Shown: piece after piece, positions 1 to 8,588 of the stretch
Position numbering within the stretch: the stretch's first letter is position 1
How the letters are laid out: each line of letters starts with the position of its first letter
Source of the DNA: a virus
Virus genome (UHGV): UHGV-1749175
Reading direction: 5' to 3' (one strand)
DNA: 10,635 nucleotides
Made by a program: the position numbers and the translations under genes
The notes under the pieces: generated by a model
Database searches by the model: none
The model's input: only the letters and a program-made list of their open reading frames with translations
What the model was told of the DNA's origin: nothing

Positions 1-20
1 AAAAGCTGGTGGGGTAGTAA

Positions 21-413
21 ATGAAGCTGAGATCTAAGCTGGTTATTGTTGCCTTCGTTGTTACCGTCATTGGTTCCTTCATCTGGTCTGCCGGGCATTA
101 CTACAGCAAATATCAGCACGAAAAGGAGCGTGCTGATGAGGCTGTACGAAATGCTGAATCAGCAACTGCCATTACCCGTAACGTTCTGCAATCACTGCAA
201 ATCGTCAATACAGTTCTGGAGGCTAACCAGCATGCAAAACAGCAGATCGCACTGGAGTCACAGAGAACCCAGGAAGATATCAAAGTGGCTGTTGCGGATG
301 ATGATTGTGCTGTTCGTTTTGTGCCTTCTGGCGCAGTTAAGCGGCTGCGGAAGTACGCGAACAGTTTACGTACCGATTCCGGCGGTACCGTTGCCAGCAA
401 GCCTGACTACTGA
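21..413 (+). CDS. Rz: Rz-like i-spanin (inner-membrane spanin, lysis)
   Basis: ATG at 21 preceded by a G-rich SD-like stretch (8-14). N-terminal hydrophobic helix (LVIVAFVVTVIGSFIW) followed by a charged, Q/E/A-rich helical periplasmic domain. A +1-frame lipoprotein gene (Rz1) starts inside it. Stop TGA 411-413. Confidence 0.75.
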   Translation: MKLRSKLVIVAFVVTVIGSFIWSAGHYYSKYQHEKERADEAVRNAESATAITRNVLQSLQIVNTVLEANQHAKQQIALESQRTQEDIKVAVADDDCAVRFVPSGAVKRLRKYANSLRTDSGGTVASKPDY

Positions 414-570
414 AACTCCCCAGCCAGTCATTCCCGAGCCGCTGACCTATGGGGCCAGTCTGGATCTGAATGTGAGCCTGCTTTCGGCGTTGGGACAATG
501 CAATATTGACAAAGCGGGGATTCGAAGTATCGAGATGCGCCGTAACGCTTTGCTGGCAGCAGTCAAATAG
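298..570 (+). CDS. Rz1: Rz1-like o-spanin (outer-membrane lipoprotein, lysis)
   Basis: Tandem ATGs at 298 and 301 in the +1 frame relative to Rz. Lipoprotein signal MMIVLFVLCLLAQLSGC with lipobox LSGC, then a proline-rich mature region (PIPAVPLPASLTTETPQPVIPEPL). Starts inside Rz and runs past the Rz stop, i.e. the overlapped (P2 LysB/LysC-like) arrangement. Only the 298..570 part of track ORF 46..570 is credible. Stop TAG 568-570. Confidence 0.75.
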   Translation: MMIVLFVLCLLAQLSGCGSTRTVYVPIPAVPLPASLTTETPQPVIPEPLTYGASLDLNVSLLSALGQCNIDKAGIRSIEMRRNALLAAVK

Positions 571-596
571 TCCGGATAAAGAACAGGAATATATTT

Positions 597-947
597 ATGC
601 CCCCTCGAACTCCAAAAGCCTGCCGCGTTCGCGGCTGCCGTAATACCACGACAGACCCGTCAGGCTACTGCGAAAGCCACAAAAGCGAAGGCTGGAAGCA
701 ATACAAGCCAGGACAATCCCGTCATCAGCGCGGTTATGGTTCGAAGTGGGATGTTATCCGCGTGCGTGTGTTGAAGCGTGACAAAGGACTGTGCCAGTTG
801 TGCCTGCGTGCCGGTGTGGTGCGTGAAGCGAAAACCGTTGATCACATCATCCCTAAAGCGCATGGCGGCTCTGATGCCGACAGTAATCTGCAGAGCCTGT
901 GCTGGCCGTGTCATAAGGCGAAGACGGCCCGTGAACGGTTGAAGTGA
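597..947 (+). CDS. HNH endonuclease (phage packaging-associated)
   Basis: 116 aa with two CxxC pairs (CQLC, CWPC) and an HNH core (DHIIPKAHGG ... NLQSLCWPCHKAK). AGGA about 8 nt upstream of ATG 597. Sits immediately upstream of the terminase genes, as is typical for HK97-like cos phages. Confidence 0.85.
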   Translation: MPPRTPKACRVRGCRNTTTDPSGYCESHKSEGWKQYKPGQSRHQRGYGSKWDVIRVRVLKRDKGLCQLCLRAGVVREAKTVDHIIPKAHGGSDADSNLQSLCWPCHKAKTARERLK

Positions 948-973
948 TAATAATTCTCAACTGCCTGAGGGGA

Positions 974-1033
974 GGGGCGGGTCAAATCCCTGCGGCCTGA
1001 CGTCTTCCGGACTGCCCGCCCCATCGTTTTTTT
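974..1033 (+). terminator. GC-rich hairpin followed by a T7 run in the HNH-terminase intergenic region: candidate intrinsic terminator or cos-associated structure
   Basis: GGGGCGGG (974-981) is the perfect reverse complement of CCCGCCCC (1015-1022), followed by ATCG and TTTTTTT (1027-1033). The loop is long (about 33 nt) and the T-run is 4 nt from the stem, so this is not a textbook terminator. In HK97-like phages the cos site lies between the HNH gene and the small terminase gene. Confidence 0.35.
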
Positions 1034-1072
1034 ATACCCGCGAAAAATGAAATTTAACCAGGAGTGCCGCAT

Positions 1073-1567
1073 ATGGCTGGAACGGCGGGGCGTTCCGGGC
1101 GTCGCCCCAAGCCAACGGCGCGCAAGGCGCTGGCCGGAAACCCCGGCAAGCGAGCCCTGAATAAAGATGAACCTGTTTTTACGCCCATCAAAGGTGTTGA
1201 GCCACCGGAGTGGTTCGCTGAAGAAGATCTCCCTCTCGCCACGATCATGTGGCAACTGACAACCAAAGAACTCTGCGGTCAGGGCCTGCTGTGCGTGACT
1301 GACCTGGCGGTACTTGAGCGGTGGTGCGTGGCCTATGAGTTCTGGCGACGTGCCGTGAAAAATATTGCCAGACAGGGCAACACCATCACCGGTGCAATGG
1401 GCGGCATGGTCAAAAATCCGGAGCTGACCGCCAAAAAAGAACAGGAGTCCGAGATGAGCAGCACGGGGGCAATGCTCGGACTCGACCCCAGCAGCCGCCA
1501 GCGTCTGATTGGCCTGGCGGGGAAGAAGAAAGCCACTAACCCGTTTCTGAAAATCATCGAATCATGA
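1073..1567 (+). CDS. Terminase small subunit, P27 family
   Basis: N-terminal [27 protein letters not shown] is the characteristic P27-family small-terminase opening. AGGAG at 1060-1064 sits 8 nt before ATG 1073; the track start at 1064 is a GTG inside that SD and is less likely. Stop TGA 1565-1567 overlaps the start of the large subunit (ATGA). Confidence 0.85.
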
Positions 1568-3297
1568 GCCGGAAATCTTACCCCAACGTAAATGCTGCCA
1601 ATCAGTATGCCCGTGATGTCGTGCGGGGAAAGATTGTGGCCTGCCAGTTTGTGATTCAGGCCTGCCAGCGCCATCTTGATGACCTGATGGCGGAAAAAAG
1701 TAAGTCGTTTCGTTACCGCTTCGACAAGGACCTGGCTGAACGGGCCGCCAAATTTATTCAGCTGTTGCCGCATACCAAGGGTGAGTGGGCATTTAAACGG
1801 ATGCCCATCACGCTGGAGCCGTGGCAGCTCTTTGTGATCTGCTGTGCGTTTGGCTGGGTCAATAAAGGCACCCGGTTGCGCCGCTTCCGGGAGGTGTATA
1901 CCGAAATTCCCCGTAAGAACGGCAAATCGGCAATCTCTGCCGGTGTTGCCCTGTATTGTTTTGCCTGTGATAACGAGTTCGGTGCGGAAGTGTATTCCGG
2001 TGCCACGACGGAGAAACAGGCATGGGAAGTCTTTCGTCCGGCACGACTGATGTGTAAACGCACACCCATGCTGACGGAAGCGTTCGGGATTGAGGTTAAC
2101 GCCTCAAACATGAACCGTCCGGAGGATGGTGCGCGGTTTGAACCGCTGATCGGTAACCCCGGTGATGGTTCATCACCCCACTGTGCCGTGGTGGATGAAT
2201 ATCACGAGCACGCCACCGATGCGCTTTACACCACGATGCTTACCGGGATGGGGGCGCGACGCCAGCCACTGATGTGGGCCATTACCACCGCCGGGTACAA
2301 CATTGAGGGGCCGTGCTACGACAAACGGCGGGAAGTCATCGAGATGCTCAACGGCTCGGTGCCCAACGATGAACTGTTCGGGATCATCTATACCGTTGAC
2401 GAAGGCGACGACTGGACCGACCCGCAGGTACTTGAAAAAGCTAACCCGAATATCGGTGTGTCGGTTTATCGCGAGTTTTTGTTAAGCCAGCAGCAACGTG
2501 CGAAAAATAACGCCCGTCTGGCAAACGTCTTTAAAACAAAACACCTCAATATCTGGGTGTCGGCGCGTTCGGCGTATTTCAACCTGGTGAGCTGGCAGAG
2601 CTGCGAGGATAAATCACTGACTCTTGAGCAGTTCGAGGGGCAGCCGTGCATTCTGGCCTTTGACCTGGCGCGTAAGCTGGATATGAACAGCATGGCGCGA
2701 CTTTATACCCGCGAGATTGACGGTAAAACGCATTACTACAGTGTGGCCCCGCGTTTCTGGGTACCGTATGACACGGTGTACAGCGTCGAGAAAAATGAAG
2801 ATCGCCGGACAGCCGAACGCTTTCAGAAATGGGTGGAAATGGGCGTTCTGACCGTTACCGATGGTGCAGAGGTGGATTATCGCTACATCCTCGAAGAGGC
2901 CAAAGCGGCGAACAAAATCAGCCCGGTCAGTGAGTCACCCATCGACCCTTTCGGAGCGACCGGGCTGTCACATGACCTTGCTGATGAAGACCTGAATCCC
3001 GTTACTATCGTCCAGAACTTCGCCAATATGTCCGACCCGATGAAAGAGCTGGAGGCAGCGATTGAATCGGGACGCTTTCATCATGACGGCAATCCCATCA
3101 TGACCTGGTGTATCGGCAACGTGGTCGGCAAAAACATGCCAGGTAACGATGATTTAGTGAAGCCCGTCAAAGAGCAGGCGGAAAACAAAATTGACGGTGC
3201 AGTTGCGCTGATTATGGCGGTTGGCAGAGCCATGCTGTATGAGAAAGAAGACACGCTGTCTGACCACATTGAGTCCTACGGGATCCGCTCGCTTTAA
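1564..3297 (+). CDS. Terminase large subunit (ATPase/nuclease)
   Basis: 577 aa. Start coupled to the small-subunit stop by an ATGA overlap. Walker-A-like RKNGKS near the N-terminus and acidic nuclease-domain-like stretches (VVDEYHE, DLARKLD). Size and position fit an HK97-type large terminase. Confidence 0.9.
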
Positions 3298-3308
3298 CTG
3301 AGGTAATT

Positions 3309-3491
3309 ATGATCATGCTGATTCTCGCGCCTCTGGTGGGCGTGCTGGGGGCGCTTTTGCTGGCGTATGGTGCCTGGCTGATTTATCCCCCGGCGGGGTT
3401 TGTTGTTGCCGGGGCGTTGTGTCTGTTCTGGTCGTGGCTGGTGGCGCGATATCTCGACCGTACACAGCTGTCTGTCGGCGGAGGTAAATAG
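3309..3491 (+). CDS. Small hypothetical membrane protein (60 aa, two predicted TM helices)
   Basis: Starts 11 nt after the large-terminase stop; GAGG 5 nt upstream of ATG 3309. Two hydrophobic segments ([23 protein letters not shown] and [17 protein letters not shown]). Stop TAG 3489-3491 overlaps the portal GTG start by 1 nt. No family recognised. Confidence 0.45.
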
Positions 3492-4732
3492 TGTTCTTTT
3501 CGGGATTATTTCAACGAAAAAGTGACGCGCCGGTGACCACCCCAGCAGAGCTGGCGGATGCTATAGGGCTGTCATATGACACCTATACCGGAAAGCAGAT
3601 CAGCAGCCAGCGGGCCATGCGACTGACGGCGGTTTTTTCCTGCGTCAGGGTGCTGGCAGAGTCGGTCGGGATGTTGCCCTGCAATCTGTATCACCTGAAC
3701 GGCAGCCTGAAACAGAGAGCCACCGGCGAACGTCTGCATAAGCTGATCTCCACGCATCCCAATAGCTATATGACGCCGCAGGAGTTCTGGGAGCTGGTGG
3801 TCACCTGTCTGTGCCTGCGGGGAAACTTTTACGCCTACAAAGTGAAAGCATTTGGCGAAGTGGCTGAACTGCTGCCCGTCGATCCTGGCTGTGTGGTACC
3901 GAAGCTTAACAGTAGCTGGGAGCCGGTCTATCAGGTCACATTCCCGGACGGCTCCACGGATGTGCTGACCCAGGAGGATATCTGGCATGTGCGCACGCTG
4001 ACGCTGGACGGTCTGGTGGGGCTGAATCCCATCGCCTATGCCCGCGAGGCAATATCGCTGGCAGCTGCGACCGAAGAGCACGGGGCCAGACTGTTCAGCA
4101 ATGGTGCGGTGACGTCGGGTGTGTTGCGTACAGAGCAGACGCTGTCAGATCAGGCTTACGAGCGCCTGAAGAAAGATTTTGAGGAGCGTCACACCGGGCT
4201 TGGTAATGCTCACCGCCCGATGATCCTTGAGATGGGGCTGGACTGGAAGTCGATGGCGCTGAACGCCGAGGACAGCCAGTTCCTGGAAACCCGCAAGTTT
4301 CAGCTTGAAGAAATTTGTCGTCTGTTCCGTGTGCCATTGCACATGGTGCAGAACACCGATCGCGCCACCTTCAACAATATCGAAGAGCTGGGGCTCGGAT
4401 TTATCAACTATTCACTGGTGCCGTATCTGACCCGCATTGAGCAGCGGATCAACACCGGACTGGTACGAAAAAGTAAGCAGGGTGTTTATTACGCCAAATT
4501 TAACGCCGGGGCGTTACTGCGCGGGGATATGAAGTCCCGTTTTGAAGCCTACGCCACCGGGATTAACTGGGGAATTTACTCTCCCAATGACTGCCGCGAC
4601 CTGGAAGATATGAATCCGCGTCCCGGTGGTGATGTCTATCTCACACCGATGAACATGACCACGAAACCCTCCGATGGCAGTAAAGCCGGTAAGCAGAAGG
4701 ATAACGCCAATGCAGACGAAACAACGTCTTGA
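3491..4732 (+). CDS. Portal protein, HK97 family
   Basis: 413 aa. GTG start at 3491 with GGAGG at 3480-3484, 6 nt upstream. Size, composition and position (after terminase, before prohead protease) are typical of HK97-type portals. Confidence 0.85.
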   Translation: MFFSGLFQRKSDAPVTTPAELADAIGLSYDTYTGKQISSQRAMRLTAVFSCVRVLAESVGMLPCNLYHLNGSLKQRATGERLHKLISTHPNSYMTPQEFWELVVTCLCLRGNFYAYKVKAFGEVAELLPVDPGCVVPKLNSSWEPVYQVTFPDGSTDVLTQEDIWHVRTLTLDGLVGLNPIAYAREAISLAAATEEHGARLFSNGAVTSGVLRTEQTLSDQAYERLKKDFEERHTGLGNAHRPMILEMGLDWKSMALNAEDSQFLETRKFQLEEICRLFRVPLHMVQNTDRATFNNIEELGLGFINYSLVPYLTRIEQRINTGLVRKSKQGVYYAKFNAGALLRGDMKSRFEAYATGINWGIYSPNDCRDLEDMNPRPGGDVYLTPMNMTTKPSDGSKAGKQKDNANADETTS

Positions 4733-6629: not shown

Positions 6630-6830
6630 ATGATCCTGAAACAAGATCTGAAATGGTCACCGGACGGTATGCGTGTTGAGGTCATTCGGGCCGGTGAGTA
6701 TGACGACGGGGCGCTTCCTGCCCGGGTGCAGGAGATTGCACTTCAGGCCGGGTTAGCAGAGCGCGGAATCAGTGCAAAAAGCAGTAAAGCGGCAAAAGAG
6801 AAAAAAGCCACGACCAGTAAAGAGGGCTGA
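6630..6830 (+). CDS. Small hypothetical protein (66 aa, hydrophilic, Lys-rich C-terminal tail)
   Basis: ATG 6630 lies 14 nt after the hairpin. Stop TGA 6828-6830 is 2 nt before the connector gene start, and the connector SD (AGAGGG, 6821-6826) lies inside its 3' end. No family recognised. Confidence 0.45.
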   Translation: MILKQDLKWSPDGMRVEVIRAGEYDDGALPARVQEIALQAGLAERGISAKSSKAAKEKKATTSKEG

Positions 6831-7156: not shown

Positions 7157-7563
7157 AAATTCGTCAGGCGCAGACCAGCGCAACCTACATTCTGCCGGAC
7201 CCCGGCGAACTGAATAAACGCGTCCTGATCCGCCAGCGGGTGGATATGCCCGCGGATAACTTTGGCGTGGAGCCTCAATACCCGGTTGCGTTCCGGGCAT
7301 GGGCGAAGGTTATCCAGACCAGTGCCACCACCTGGCAGGAAACCGCGCAGACCGGGGACGCCATCACCCATTACATCACCATTCGCTACCGCCGGGGGAT
7401 CACCGCTGATTATGAGGTGGTCTGTGATGACAGTGTGTACCGGGTGAAACGTCAGCGCGATCTGAACGGGGCGCGGCGCTTTCTGCTGCTGGAGTGTACG
7501 GAACTGGGCGAATTTACGCAGAGTCACGGAGGCAGCAATGGCGACTCCCTTTTTTCACGTTGA
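7153..7563 (+). CDS. Head-tail adaptor / head closure protein (SPP1 gp16-like)
   Basis: 136 aa. Motifs THYITIRYRRGIT and RFLLLECTE resemble the conserved core of phage head-tail joining proteins. ATG coupled to the upstream stop. Confidence 0.75.
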   Translation: MKIRQAQTSATYILPDPGELNKRVLIRQRVDMPADNFGVEPQYPVAFRAWAKVIQTSATTWQETAQTGDAITHYITIRYRRGITADYEVVCDDSVYRVKRQRDLNGARRFLLLECTELGEFTQSHGGSNGDSLFSR

Positions 7564-8044
7564 TGTTCAGCAGCCCGCGGAGATGCGCTTTAACCGCGCC
7601 CGTGTCCGGCGGGCGTTTGTCACGATTGGGCAGCGTCATATGCGTGATGCCCGTCGGCTGGTGATGCGCCGTGCGCGGTCGGTACCGGGTGAAAACCCCG
7701 GTTATCAGACCGGACGCCTGGCTCGTTCGATTGGTTACATGGTGCCGAGAGCCAGTAAAAAGCGAGCCGGTTTTATGACACGCATTGCCCCTAACCAGCG
7801 CAACGGGAAGGGGAACCGGATGATCTCTGGTGACTTCTATCCGGCGTTTCTGTTTTTTGGTGTCCGGGGAGGAGCAAAACGTCGTCGTAGTCATCATCGT
7901 GGTGCATCCGGTGGCAGCGGCTGGCGGCTGGCTCCACGTAATAACTTTATGGTGGAAACGCTTGAAAAGAACCGCAGCTGGACACGCTATTTTCTGGCGC
8001 GGGAATTGCGTAAATCACTGAAGCCGGAGCGACGACACAGATGA
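7538..8044 (+). CDS. HK97 gp10-family neck/tail-completion protein
   Basis: GGAGG at 7527-7531 is 6 nt before ATG 7538. Translation contains TGRLARSIGY and YPAFLFFGVRGG, resembling the GxLRRSI and YAxFVEFGT signatures of the HK97 gp10 family. Overlaps the adaptor 3' end by 26 nt. Stop TGA 8042-8044 overlaps the next ATG (8041). Confidence 0.7.
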   Translation: MATPFFHVDVQQPAEMRFNRARVRRAFVTIGQRHMRDARRLVMRRARSVPGENPGYQTGRLARSIGYMVPRASKKRAGFMTRIAPNQRNGKGNRMISGDFYPAFLFFGVRGGAKRRRSHHRGASGGSGWRLAPRNNFMVETLEKNRSWTRYFLARELRKSLKPERRHR

Positions 8045-8588
8045 AACTGACGCCTGTTATTGCTGCGCTGCGTGCCCGCTGCCCGTATTTTGAAAACCGG
8101 GTGGCAGGCGCGGCACAGTTCAAAAATCTGCCGGAGGTCGGAAAGCTGAGACTCCCGGCGGCGTATGTGATTCTCCGGGAGAAAACAAAAGCCAGACCGA
8201 CTACTGGCAGGAGCTGAAAGAGGGTTTCTCCGTGGTTGTCATACTGAGTAACGGGCGTGATGAGCGCGGTCAGTTTGCCTCGTATGATGTGGTGGACGAT
8301 GTCCGGCAGATGCTCTTTAAGGCTCTGCTGGGCTGGAACCCGGAAGCGTGCGGTAACCCGATTACCTATGACGGCGGCACGCTGCTGGATCTGAATCGTC
8401 ATGAGCTGATTTATCAGTTCGATTTTTCGGTCATCAGCGAGCTGACCGAAGACGATACCCGCCAGCAGGATGACCTGAACAGTCTGGATGAACTGCGAAC
8501 GCTGGCGATTGATGTTGATTATCTCGATCCCGGTAACGGGCCTGACGGCGATATCGAACATCACACCGAAATAACCCTTCCTTCCTGA
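8041..8588 (+). pseudogene. Neck/tail morphogenesis gene apparently interrupted by a -1 frame break near 8185-8195 (alternative reading: two separate small genes, 8041..8217 and 8232..8588)
   Basis: ATG 8041 (coupled to the gp10-like stop) opens a protein-like frame (MKLTPVIAALRARCPYFENRVAGAAQFKNLPEVGKLRLPAAYVILREKTKA...) that ends at TGA 8215-8217 after a junk-like tail (RPTTGRS). A second frame, open from 8094, is junk-like upstream but protein-like from about 8193 (QTDYWQELKEGFSVVVILSNGRDERGQFASYDVVDDVRQMLFKALLGW...) through 8588. The switch point coincides with the A-rich tract GAGAAAACAAAAGCC (8179-8193). Together the two parts would give one protein of roughly 180 aa. Confidence 0.45.

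Follow-up and report, generated by a model that had tools for sequence, protein, structure and literature searches.

A conserved, portal-linked gene for a predicted two-helix membrane protein between the large terminase and portal genes of HK97-type phages

Introduction

The head-tail joining protein gpW of phage lambda is a soluble α/β protein. Phage T4 initiates its prohead at the membrane, where the portal protein gp20 works with gp40 and YidC, gene 40 not being adjacent to the portal gene. Class II holins and pinholins (e.g. S21 68) are proteins of about 60–70 amino acids (aa) with two transmembrane helices, both ends inside, a charged tail, and late expression. T4 Imm and HK97 gp15 are tiny inner-membrane exclusion proteins with early or prophage expression; the gene for HK97 gp15 lies within a late structural operon, and its product works against the phage's own tape-measure and entry route. 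In this study, we analyzed a small open reading frame (ORF), ymfR, located between the large terminase (TerL) and portal genes in a stretch of 10,635 nucleotides from the viral genome UHGV-1749175 (the whole stretch is hereafter called the window).

The ORF is a correctly described and already catalogued gene (YmfR, PHROG 502) that is real, conserved, accessory, and portal-linked; because both the gene and its family are in the databases, the ORF is not itself a discovery. The comparison described here adds that few small genes in head modules of the HK97 type keep their position as faithfully as ymfR, which is locked to the start codon of the portal gene from Enterobacteria to Clostridia and is nonetheless dispensable.

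Results

Evidence for a genuine gene

ymfR occupies window positions 3309..3491 on the + strand and consists of an ATG start, 60 codons in all, and a TAG stop. TerL (1564..3297, +), which matched the Pfam families TerL_ATPase and TerL_nuclease (PF03354/PF20441), ends at TAA 3295–3297 and leaves an 11-nt gap to ymfR. The ymfR stop (TAG 3489–3491) shares its G with the GTG start (3491–3493) of the portal gene, giving a 1-nt overlap. The portal gene (3491..4732, +) belongs to PF04860 (E = 1.8e-108), and its start is backed by an N-terminal F-x-x-LF motif, which was found again in portals of the same group such as that of SfV. The layout given in a preliminary description of the window (60 aa, two hydrophobic helices, an 11-nt gap, a GAGG ribosome-binding site of its own, and a 1-nt overlap with the portal gene) is present in the sequence in every point.

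The window sequence is found unchanged in a prophage of Escherichia coli AR_0055, and the ymfR product is 100% identical to the RefSeq 'protein YmfR' of that strain (WP_000605604.1). Annotation of this ORF as a putative integral membrane protein is found in SfII, SfI, ST64B (sb3), phiP27, and 118970_sal3, and the E. coli K-12 copy is ymfR of the defective prophage e14, where the flanking terminase and portal pseudogene are both truncated. A 1-kb query comprising the end of TerL, ymfR, and the start of the portal gene was covered to at least 80% in 1161 of 5426 complete E. coli genomes. YmfR matched PHROG 502, labelled 'membrane protein', over residues 1–55 (E = 1.5e-27). Pfam and NCBIfam searches gave no family for YmfR, and PADLOC and PDB sequence searches gave noise only.

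The integrity of the gene was examined in 80 IMG/VR loci found via the portal, two of which were cut off upstream. An intact PHROG 502-type ORF ending at the portal start was present in 71 of the 78 evaluable loci; among the other seven, one carried the related SfV-type ORF described below and six had none. Length is also conserved, 81 of the 120 listed protein-database homologues being exactly 60 aa at identities down to 58%. The ratio of nonsynonymous to synonymous polymorphism (pN/pS; pooled Nei-Gojobori estimates on 42 distinct 60-codon alleles) was 0.42 for the whole ORF, 0.28 for codons 1–47, which cover both helices, and 0.76 for the tail. The two alternative sense frames gave 0.94 and 1.62, and the three antisense frames 0.59, 1.16, and 1.71; the lowest of these (0.59) comes from the antisense frame expected to mirror the sense constraint, and the other four lack purifying selection. 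The frame-specific pN/pS and the integrity of the ORF indicate that ymfR is translated and selected as a protein. The preliminary description had called for such a check of length and of synonymous against nonsynonymous change, and both comparisons point to a selected reading frame; its alternative of a merely spurious ORF is rejected by the conserved length, the pN/pS over the helices, and the 430 clusters described below. It is almost certain that ymfR is a genuine and conserved gene for a membrane protein, and that it is coupled to the portal gene.

Damaged copies were also seen. In Xenorhabdus bakwenae (locus L060, 3495..3662), the small gene is frameshifted in helix 2, apparently in a decaying prophage copy, and a few database proteins (e.g. 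P0021, P0023, and P0082) carry local double frameshifts.

Features of the locus and protein architecture

The features of the TerL–ymfR–portal interval are as follows (window coordinates).

1564..3297, + strand: large terminase (TerL) gene, from Pfam matches; its last ~26 codons (from ~3217) are inherited with ymfR and the portal gene
3300..3303, + strand: GAGG ribosome-binding site of ymfR, 5 nt 5' of the ATG, read from the sequence
3309..3491, + strand: ymfR coding sequence, 60 aa and TAG, from RefSeq identity, phrog_502, and pN/pS
3312..3377, + strand: predicted helix 1, residues 2–23, from hydropathy, the AlphaFold2 helix 2–25, and invariant G11, G14, L17, and G21
3369..3413, + strand: hairpin-turn family signature, residues 21–35, from invariant columns; motif seen from Proteobacteria to Clostridia
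3396..3446, + strand: predicted helix 2, residues 30–46, from hydropathy, AlphaFold2, and C38, W41, and S42 conserved in the enterobacterial subfamily
3447..3488, + strand: variable basic C-terminal tail, residues 47–60, with the pN/pS of 0.76
3480..3484, + strand: GGAGG ribosome-binding site of the portal gene, within ymfR codons 58–59, read from the sequence
3491..4732, + strand: portal gene (PF04860), GTG start, the first base of which is the last of the ymfR stop

Hydropathy analysis gave hydrophobic stretches at residues ~2–23 and ~30–46 and a grand average of hydropathy (GRAVY) of 1.29, the charged residues being confined to the C-terminal tail. An AlphaFold2 model built from a 24-sequence alignment placed helices at 2–25 and 27–56 with a mean predicted local distance difference test score of 74. 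A Foldseek search of this hairpin against the PDB returned no match, as expected for a hairpin of 60 aa.

The family turn signature reads [SA][YF]G[AV]W[LM][IV]Y-x-P-A-G-[FY]-I-x-x-G and is accompanied by glycines on both helices. G21, W23, P27, A29, G30, and G35 were invariant in one alignment of homologues (A1); in another (A2), G21, W23, Y26, G30, and G35 were invariant and P27, P28, and A29 nearly so. From Proteobacteria to Clostridia, and among the representatives of clusters at 50% identity, the turn motif persists despite very different G+C contents. The terminal GG(E/K/D) of the tail is also conserved in enterobacterial relatives; the Gly-Gly would be kept in this otherwise weakly constrained tail because its codons double as the portal ribosome-binding site.

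Some members are tandem-duplicated, four-helix versions (P0195, P0220, P0223, P0257, and P0288; L149:64-399, L235:2434-2760), and the tandem-fused P0223 and P0288 lie directly 5' of PF04860 portals, i.e. in the same slot. These natural duplications suggest that the hairpins work side by side. The AlphaFold2 model of one tandem-fused member showed four helices whose packing was not confident (predicted template modelling score 0.46), and it supports the secondary structure only.

Two other readings of the protein were considered. A conserved Pro-Pro ribosome-stalling site was rejected, as the family freely admits E, Q, R, or K in place of the first Pro. Helix 1 might be a cleaved signal peptide, with a small-x-Gly before the conserved Trp, but the internal copies in tandem-fused members favour an uncleaved hairpin.

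Family breadth and fidelity of position

An exhaustive profile search gave 430 cluster representatives (50% identity; E ≤ 1e-3), nearly all of 45–80 aa; two long matches were discarded, P0204 as a chance match and P0225 as a repeated-assembly artefact. A scan with the turn motif itself as the query over one genome per GTDB species yielded 54 loci. The family spans Gamma-, Beta-, and Alphaproteobacteria and Clostridia: the gammaproteobacterial loci belong to Enterobacterales, Shewanella, Halomonas/Vreelandella, and Lysobacterales, the other proteobacterial loci to Burkholderiaceae, Massilia, Azohydromonas, Reyranella, Shinella, Rhodopila, and Limoniibacter, and those of Clostridia to Ruminococcaceae metagenome-assembled genomes (MAGs) and the isolate Yanshouia hominis. 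Furthermore, at least 468 copies of the ymfR family were confirmed in IMG/VR.

In almost every locus with both neighbours identifiable, TerL (down to 21% identity to that of the window) precedes the ORF and the portal gene (down to 28%) follows it. As a control independent of the motif, ten distant representatives from the profile search were looked up in context; nine were directly 5' of a portal gene and/or just 3' of TerL, in modules carrying S78, ClpP-like, or S49 proteases, and the tenth (P0220, in L147) had an atypical context by an S78 protease with no recognisable portal. The portal start falls on the last base of the small-ORF stop in 119 of 134 loci (99 of the 113 sequences that are distinct), and in the Yanshouia copy each end of the small ORF forms an ATGA overlap. 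The family occurs with the contractile-tail phage of the window and with the N15-like siphovirus phiKO2. The preliminary statement that the portal gene usually follows TerL directly is right for HK97 itself and fails for the part of the group that resembles P27, SfII, and phiKO2, where ymfR is common.

Several loci of this survey call for separate comment. In the Yanshouia hominis locus (L059, 16..3417), the TerL match is an N-terminal fragment only (16..675), a 182-aa ORF (2869..3417) abuts the small gene, and several short ORFs lie between that ORF and the fragment; TerL may be interrupted or degraded there. The record 'Enterococcus phage Efm 3-10' (OR844959.1) carries this E. coli prophage stretch at 92.7% nucleotide identity, and the proteins encoded in Edwardsiella hoshinae NBRC 105699 (L008) and a 'Bacillota bacterium' MAG contig (L010) are 98–100% identical. 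These three stretches likely reflect contamination, mis-binning, or very recent transfer.

Linkage to the portal gene

The phage phi467 has a TerL merely 36% identical to that of the window, yet it carries the same ymfR and portal genes; in phi467-type phages, the shared sequence begins only at window ~3280. In SfV and SKA5, the TerL tail after ~3216 differs (…SSLDPDDDLLIL), along with a different small ORF and a different portal. The mosaic joints thus lie in window 3217..3297, the last ~26 TerL codons, and these codons change with the small ORF and the portal gene. From such sequence comparisons, the TerL tail, the small ORF, and the portal gene behave as a single inherited block. The C-termini of TerL proteins are known portal-binding tails in lambda and T3/T7. 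Because TerL C-termini bind the portal and change along with the small ORF and the portal gene, the small gene would lie inside a co-adapted block.

Over 91 non-identical loci, the identity of the small protein correlated with that of the portal protein (Spearman 0.78) and less with that of TerL (0.47), the pairs not being independent and the coefficients descriptive. In 694 pairs, likewise non-independent, with TerL below 50% but portal above 80% identity, the small proteins were at a median of 72% identity. ymfR is inherited with the portal gene rather than with TerL. In a Reyranella MAG (L054, 1315..3368), two unannotated reverse-strand ORFs, known from mechanical ORF calls, part the TerL match from the small ORF, which still abuts the portal gene; hence, the pair of small ORF and portal gene may need its own promoter there.

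A sister hairpin in SfV-type phages

SfV TerL is 96% nucleotide-identical to that of the window up to window ~3216, and its portal protein is only 27% identical. Between the two genes, SfV has an unannotated 53-aa two-helix ORF, MKSLIADVIGLAGFGLLTCGVYLQFGMAPALILSGALLLVGALAMARRGTRAA, whose start lies in the ATGA at the TerL stop and whose end overlaps the GTG that is probably the true start of the portal gene. In the SfV sequence (L002; U82619.2), this ORF occupies 2289..2450; the portal gene is annotated from GTG 2392, and the conserved N-terminus begins from GTG 2440, so that the annotated start is probably over-extended by 16 codons. The ORF belongs to PHROG 7105 (E = 3.2e-22) and cross-matches PHROG 502 at 5.7e-6, and PHROG 502 members match phrog_7105 at 1e-3 to 1e-4; the two are remote homologues. 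PHROG 7105-type relatives occur in Edwardsiella phage EPP-1, Klebsiella and E. coli phages, and Ralstonia YO phages. The presence of the SfV-type hairpin in addition to ymfR indicates that a small two-helix protein at this position is a general feature of this HK97-type branch.

Promoter, terminator, and moron traits

A consensus scan found no sigma-70-like promoter within ~500 nt 5' of ymfR, the nearest sigma-70-like match (9 of 12 positions) being at 2768–2796. No terminator follows the gene, whose stop overlaps the portal start, and terminator-like hairpins occur only inside ymfR (window 3327..3354 and 3385..3399). The rho-independent terminator annotated in the SfII homologue (3327–3354) was rejected, as its fold energy gave z = −1.25 against shuffled sequences and its stem is lost in other alleles. 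The GC content of ymfR is 0.61 versus 0.48–0.59 for the flanking sequence, and its skew towards T is that expected from hydrophobic codons.

The gene shares with morons its presence or absence among otherwise similar phages (it is missing from HK97, L135, L141, and L143–L146), but its position is conserved across bacterial phyla and not sporadic. Without a promoter or terminator of its own, ymfR is not a classical moron. Of the earlier suggestion of a moron-type accessory gene, the accessory part therefore stands with the absence from HK97 and six related modules, and the moron part is not supported by the promoter and terminator scans or by the conserved position.

Neighbouring genes

The RefSeq genes of the AR_0055 prophage are, in order, two holins, a glycoside hydrolase family 19 (GH19) endolysin, LysC, HNH, a P27-family small terminase (TerS), TerL, ymfR, and portal, followed by an HK97-family protease, the major capsid protein, and connector and head-closure proteins. 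The lysis genes (two holins, GH19 endolysin, and spanins) are upstream of HNH-TerS-TerL. A Pfam scan of the window further identified a tail terminator and an i-spanin in which an Rz1-like frame is embedded, together with the sheath and tube of the tail; the sheath and tube imply a contractile tail, i.e. a myovirus. The i-spanin (DUF2570) with its embedded Rz1-like LysC frame and the HNH endonuclease just 5' of TerS are at window 21..413, 46..570, and 597..947, and HNH with a P27-type terminase is a usual arrangement. In the head-tail joining region, ORFs of 66 aa (6630..6830) and 168 aa (7538..8044) had no Pfam match, and a further ORF of 58 aa lies at 8041..8217.

Discussion

The single most likely mechanism, which we offer tentatively and as a guess, is that ymfR is an auxiliary, non-essential factor that ties portal synthesis or prohead initiation to the membrane. 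The gene would be transcribed with the late head genes, and translation would run as a relay in which ribosomes leaving TerL begin at the ymfR ATG and those that terminate at its TAG reinitiate on the portal GTG. The YmfR hairpin would insert with both ends cytoplasmic and the aromatic/Pro-Ala-Gly turn at the outer face, and the conserved glycine faces may allow hairpins to pack into oligomers. YmfR would then act on the gene product made directly after it, i.e. the portal: co-translational insertion of the hairpin would draw the nascent portal, along with the late mRNA, to the membrane, and portal-nucleated prohead initiation, hence packaging, would gain a membrane-proximal site. This mode would resemble the membrane-bound initiation of T4 head assembly, without homology.

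Three comparative observations speak for a link with assembly: the extreme fidelity of the slot and of the stop/start overlap over very deep divergence, the co-divergence of YmfR with the portal, and the independence of ymfR from tail type (the myovirus of the window versus the siphovirus phiKO2), protease type, and lysis cassette. In addition, expression of e14 ymfR rises along with that of the other genes of this prophage in response to an SOS-inducing siderophore-ampicillin conjugate (PMC10012262). This co-induction is consistent with lytic-cycle transcription of ymfR.

Several points, however, weigh against this proposal, and the dispensability of ymfR is one of them. In HK97, TerL (542..2056) and the portal gene (2056..3330) have nothing between them. 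Six IMG/VR modules (L135, L141, and L143–L146) also lack ymfR, with −1 to 14 nt from TerL stop to portal start; relative to the window, their TerL is 47–61%, portal 59–66%, and protease 61–72% identical, their capsid is 56–64% identical in the five where it was recovered, and all six carry the same TerL C-terminal motif. The absence of ymfR from HK97 and these related modules indicates that it is not required for this head module. Furthermore, the conserved residues are in the membrane-embedded helices and the outer turn, and the cytoplasmic parts are tiny and variable, leaving no conserved surface for specific contact with portal or terminase. The conserved turn motif also exceeds the needs of purely cis-acting mRNA targeting. 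The locus L139 pairs a 65%-identical portal with the PHROG 7105 type, so that the hairpin subtype is not strictly portal-matched. To our knowledge, membrane-bound head initiation is known for T4 and not for HK97-like phages, and literature searches on ymfR, sb3, phiKO2 gp3, b1150, and the terminase-portal interval found no functional study.

A wider version, in which YmfR/PHROG 502 hairpins are an unrecognised, widespread membrane component of HK97-type head morphogenesis in Gram-negative and Gram-positive hosts, is less probable and in our judgement unlikely. Hairpins inserted during translation, perhaps via YidC, would form a ring or cluster that recruits the portal encoded by the following gene and nucleates proheads or packaging at the inner membrane, which would extend T4-type initiation to HK97-like phages.

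Alternatively, YmfR may be a late membrane-acting accessory protein without any head-assembly role. Such roles are possible but doubtful even when pooled, being in total about as likely as the portal-linked role, and each sub-function alone is less likely than the combined total. Oligomeric hairpins would alter the inner membrane or a host membrane protein, with effects on lysis timing or membrane potential (holin- or antiholin-like), a block of superinfecting DNA entry, or inhibition of a host membrane factor; the slot would be kept only through a rarely recombined block of the portal-binding TerL tail and the portal gene. Two transmembrane helices, a length of ~60 aa, and a basic C-terminal tail match small phage membrane effectors, the conserved residues are intramembrane or at the outer face rather than cytoplasmic, and close relatives do without ymfR. 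The mosaic joints 5' of the TerL C-terminal tail would put the gene in a co-inherited block, the PHROGs category is 'moron, auxiliary metabolic gene and host takeover', and the TerL-portal junction of actinophages is a known insertion site for genes (PMC7302621). An isopropyl β-d-thiogalactopyranoside-induced ASKA YmfR clone also belonged to the 65 membrane-protein clones, out of 392 examined, from which D-alanine was released in a lenient first screen, although it dropped out at the second and the authors warn that D-alanine release can reflect over-expression lysis (PMC10299036).

For an accessory membrane gene, however, it is unusual that the slot and the 1-nt overlap are kept across portals down to 23–29% identity and across Gram-negative and Gram-positive hosts. 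The lack of an own promoter makes lysogen expression of the HK97 gp15 type unlikely, the occurrence with both contractile and non-contractile tails runs contrary to tail- or tape-measure-specific exclusion, and two holins, an endolysin, and spanins are already present upstream in the prophage. YmfR had no holin match in Pfam or PHROG; one distant member reached Phage_holin_3_6 at E = 0.022, below the cut-off. PADLOC gave no match at E ≤ 1 for YmfR, the SfV-type ORF, or P0198, and P0157 matched LeoBC non-significantly (E = 0.23). Taken together, an accessory gene in a recombination-cold block explains the dispensability and the membrane-embedded conservation better than the portal-linked assembly factor does, and the fidelity of position and the co-divergence with the portal worse.

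It is very improbable that ymfR is a translated spacer only, which would relay ribosomes from TerL to the portal gene and bear the portal ribosome-binding site while its peptide is functionless. The highly conserved stop/start overlap, the GGAGG in the last codons, and the weak constraint on the tail save its Gly-Gly codons would suit such a spacer. The strong constraint on codons 1–47 and the invariant G, W, P, C, and S residues would not, nor would a turn motif kept across phyla of very different G+C, and relatives couple TerL straight to the portal gene with no spacer.

We give next to no credence to a head-completion protein like lambda gpW: the position is that of lambda W, and ON470584, ON470603, ON470580, and PQ793804 carry the label 'head-tail joining protein W', but there is no gpW Pfam match even at E ≤ 10, the PHROG match is 'membrane protein', YmfR is strongly hydrophobic and modelled as a helical hairpin, and the window encodes its own connector and head-completion genes downstream. 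These GenBank labels were therefore regarded as positional mis-annotations of a hydrophobic hairpin. A spurious ORF, open by chance over the portal ribosome-binding region, is equally hard to credit and already refuted: it would suit the short length and the lack of a Pfam or NCBIfam family, and it is contradicted by the intact ORF in 71 of 78 portal relatives, selection peculiar to the ymfR frame, and 430 clusters with conserved length and context.

If portal assembly or packaging is indeed tied to the membrane through YmfR, the picture of how head assembly starts would change for very common phages, and many E. coli, Shigella, and Salmonella prophages bearing ymfR would be affected. If YmfR is instead a late membrane effector, it would represent a new, widespread class of such effectors.

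Comparison with known systems

Lambda gpW shares with YmfR only that it is encoded by a small gene in the interval between the large terminase and portal genes; the proteins have no similarity. T4 Imm and HK97 gp15 differ from YmfR, whose gene lacks its own promoter and is found with either tail type. The resemblance of class II holins and pinholins to YmfR lies in size, two predicted transmembrane helices, and a charged C-terminal tail, together with the late expression and cytoplasmic ends proposed for YmfR, whereas ymfR is outside the lysis cassette and not by the endolysin. T4 prohead initiation would offer a working analogy, a membrane component aiding portal-nucleated head assembly; it has no sequence relationship to YmfR, and membrane assembly of HK97-like portals would be a supposition drawn from this analogy. 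The PHROG 7105 hairpin is alike in slot, in its two helices and basic tail, and in a stop overlapping the portal start region; it differs in being without the W-L-I-Y-P-P-A-G turn signature of YmfR, and it is found with a 27%-identical portal (SfV) and a 65%-identical portal (L139). The genes of e14, SfII, SfI, ST64B, phiP27, and phiKO2 (gp3) are the same gene in the same slot, the SfII/e14-type copies being 90–98% identical, and differ from ymfR of the window in nothing structural.

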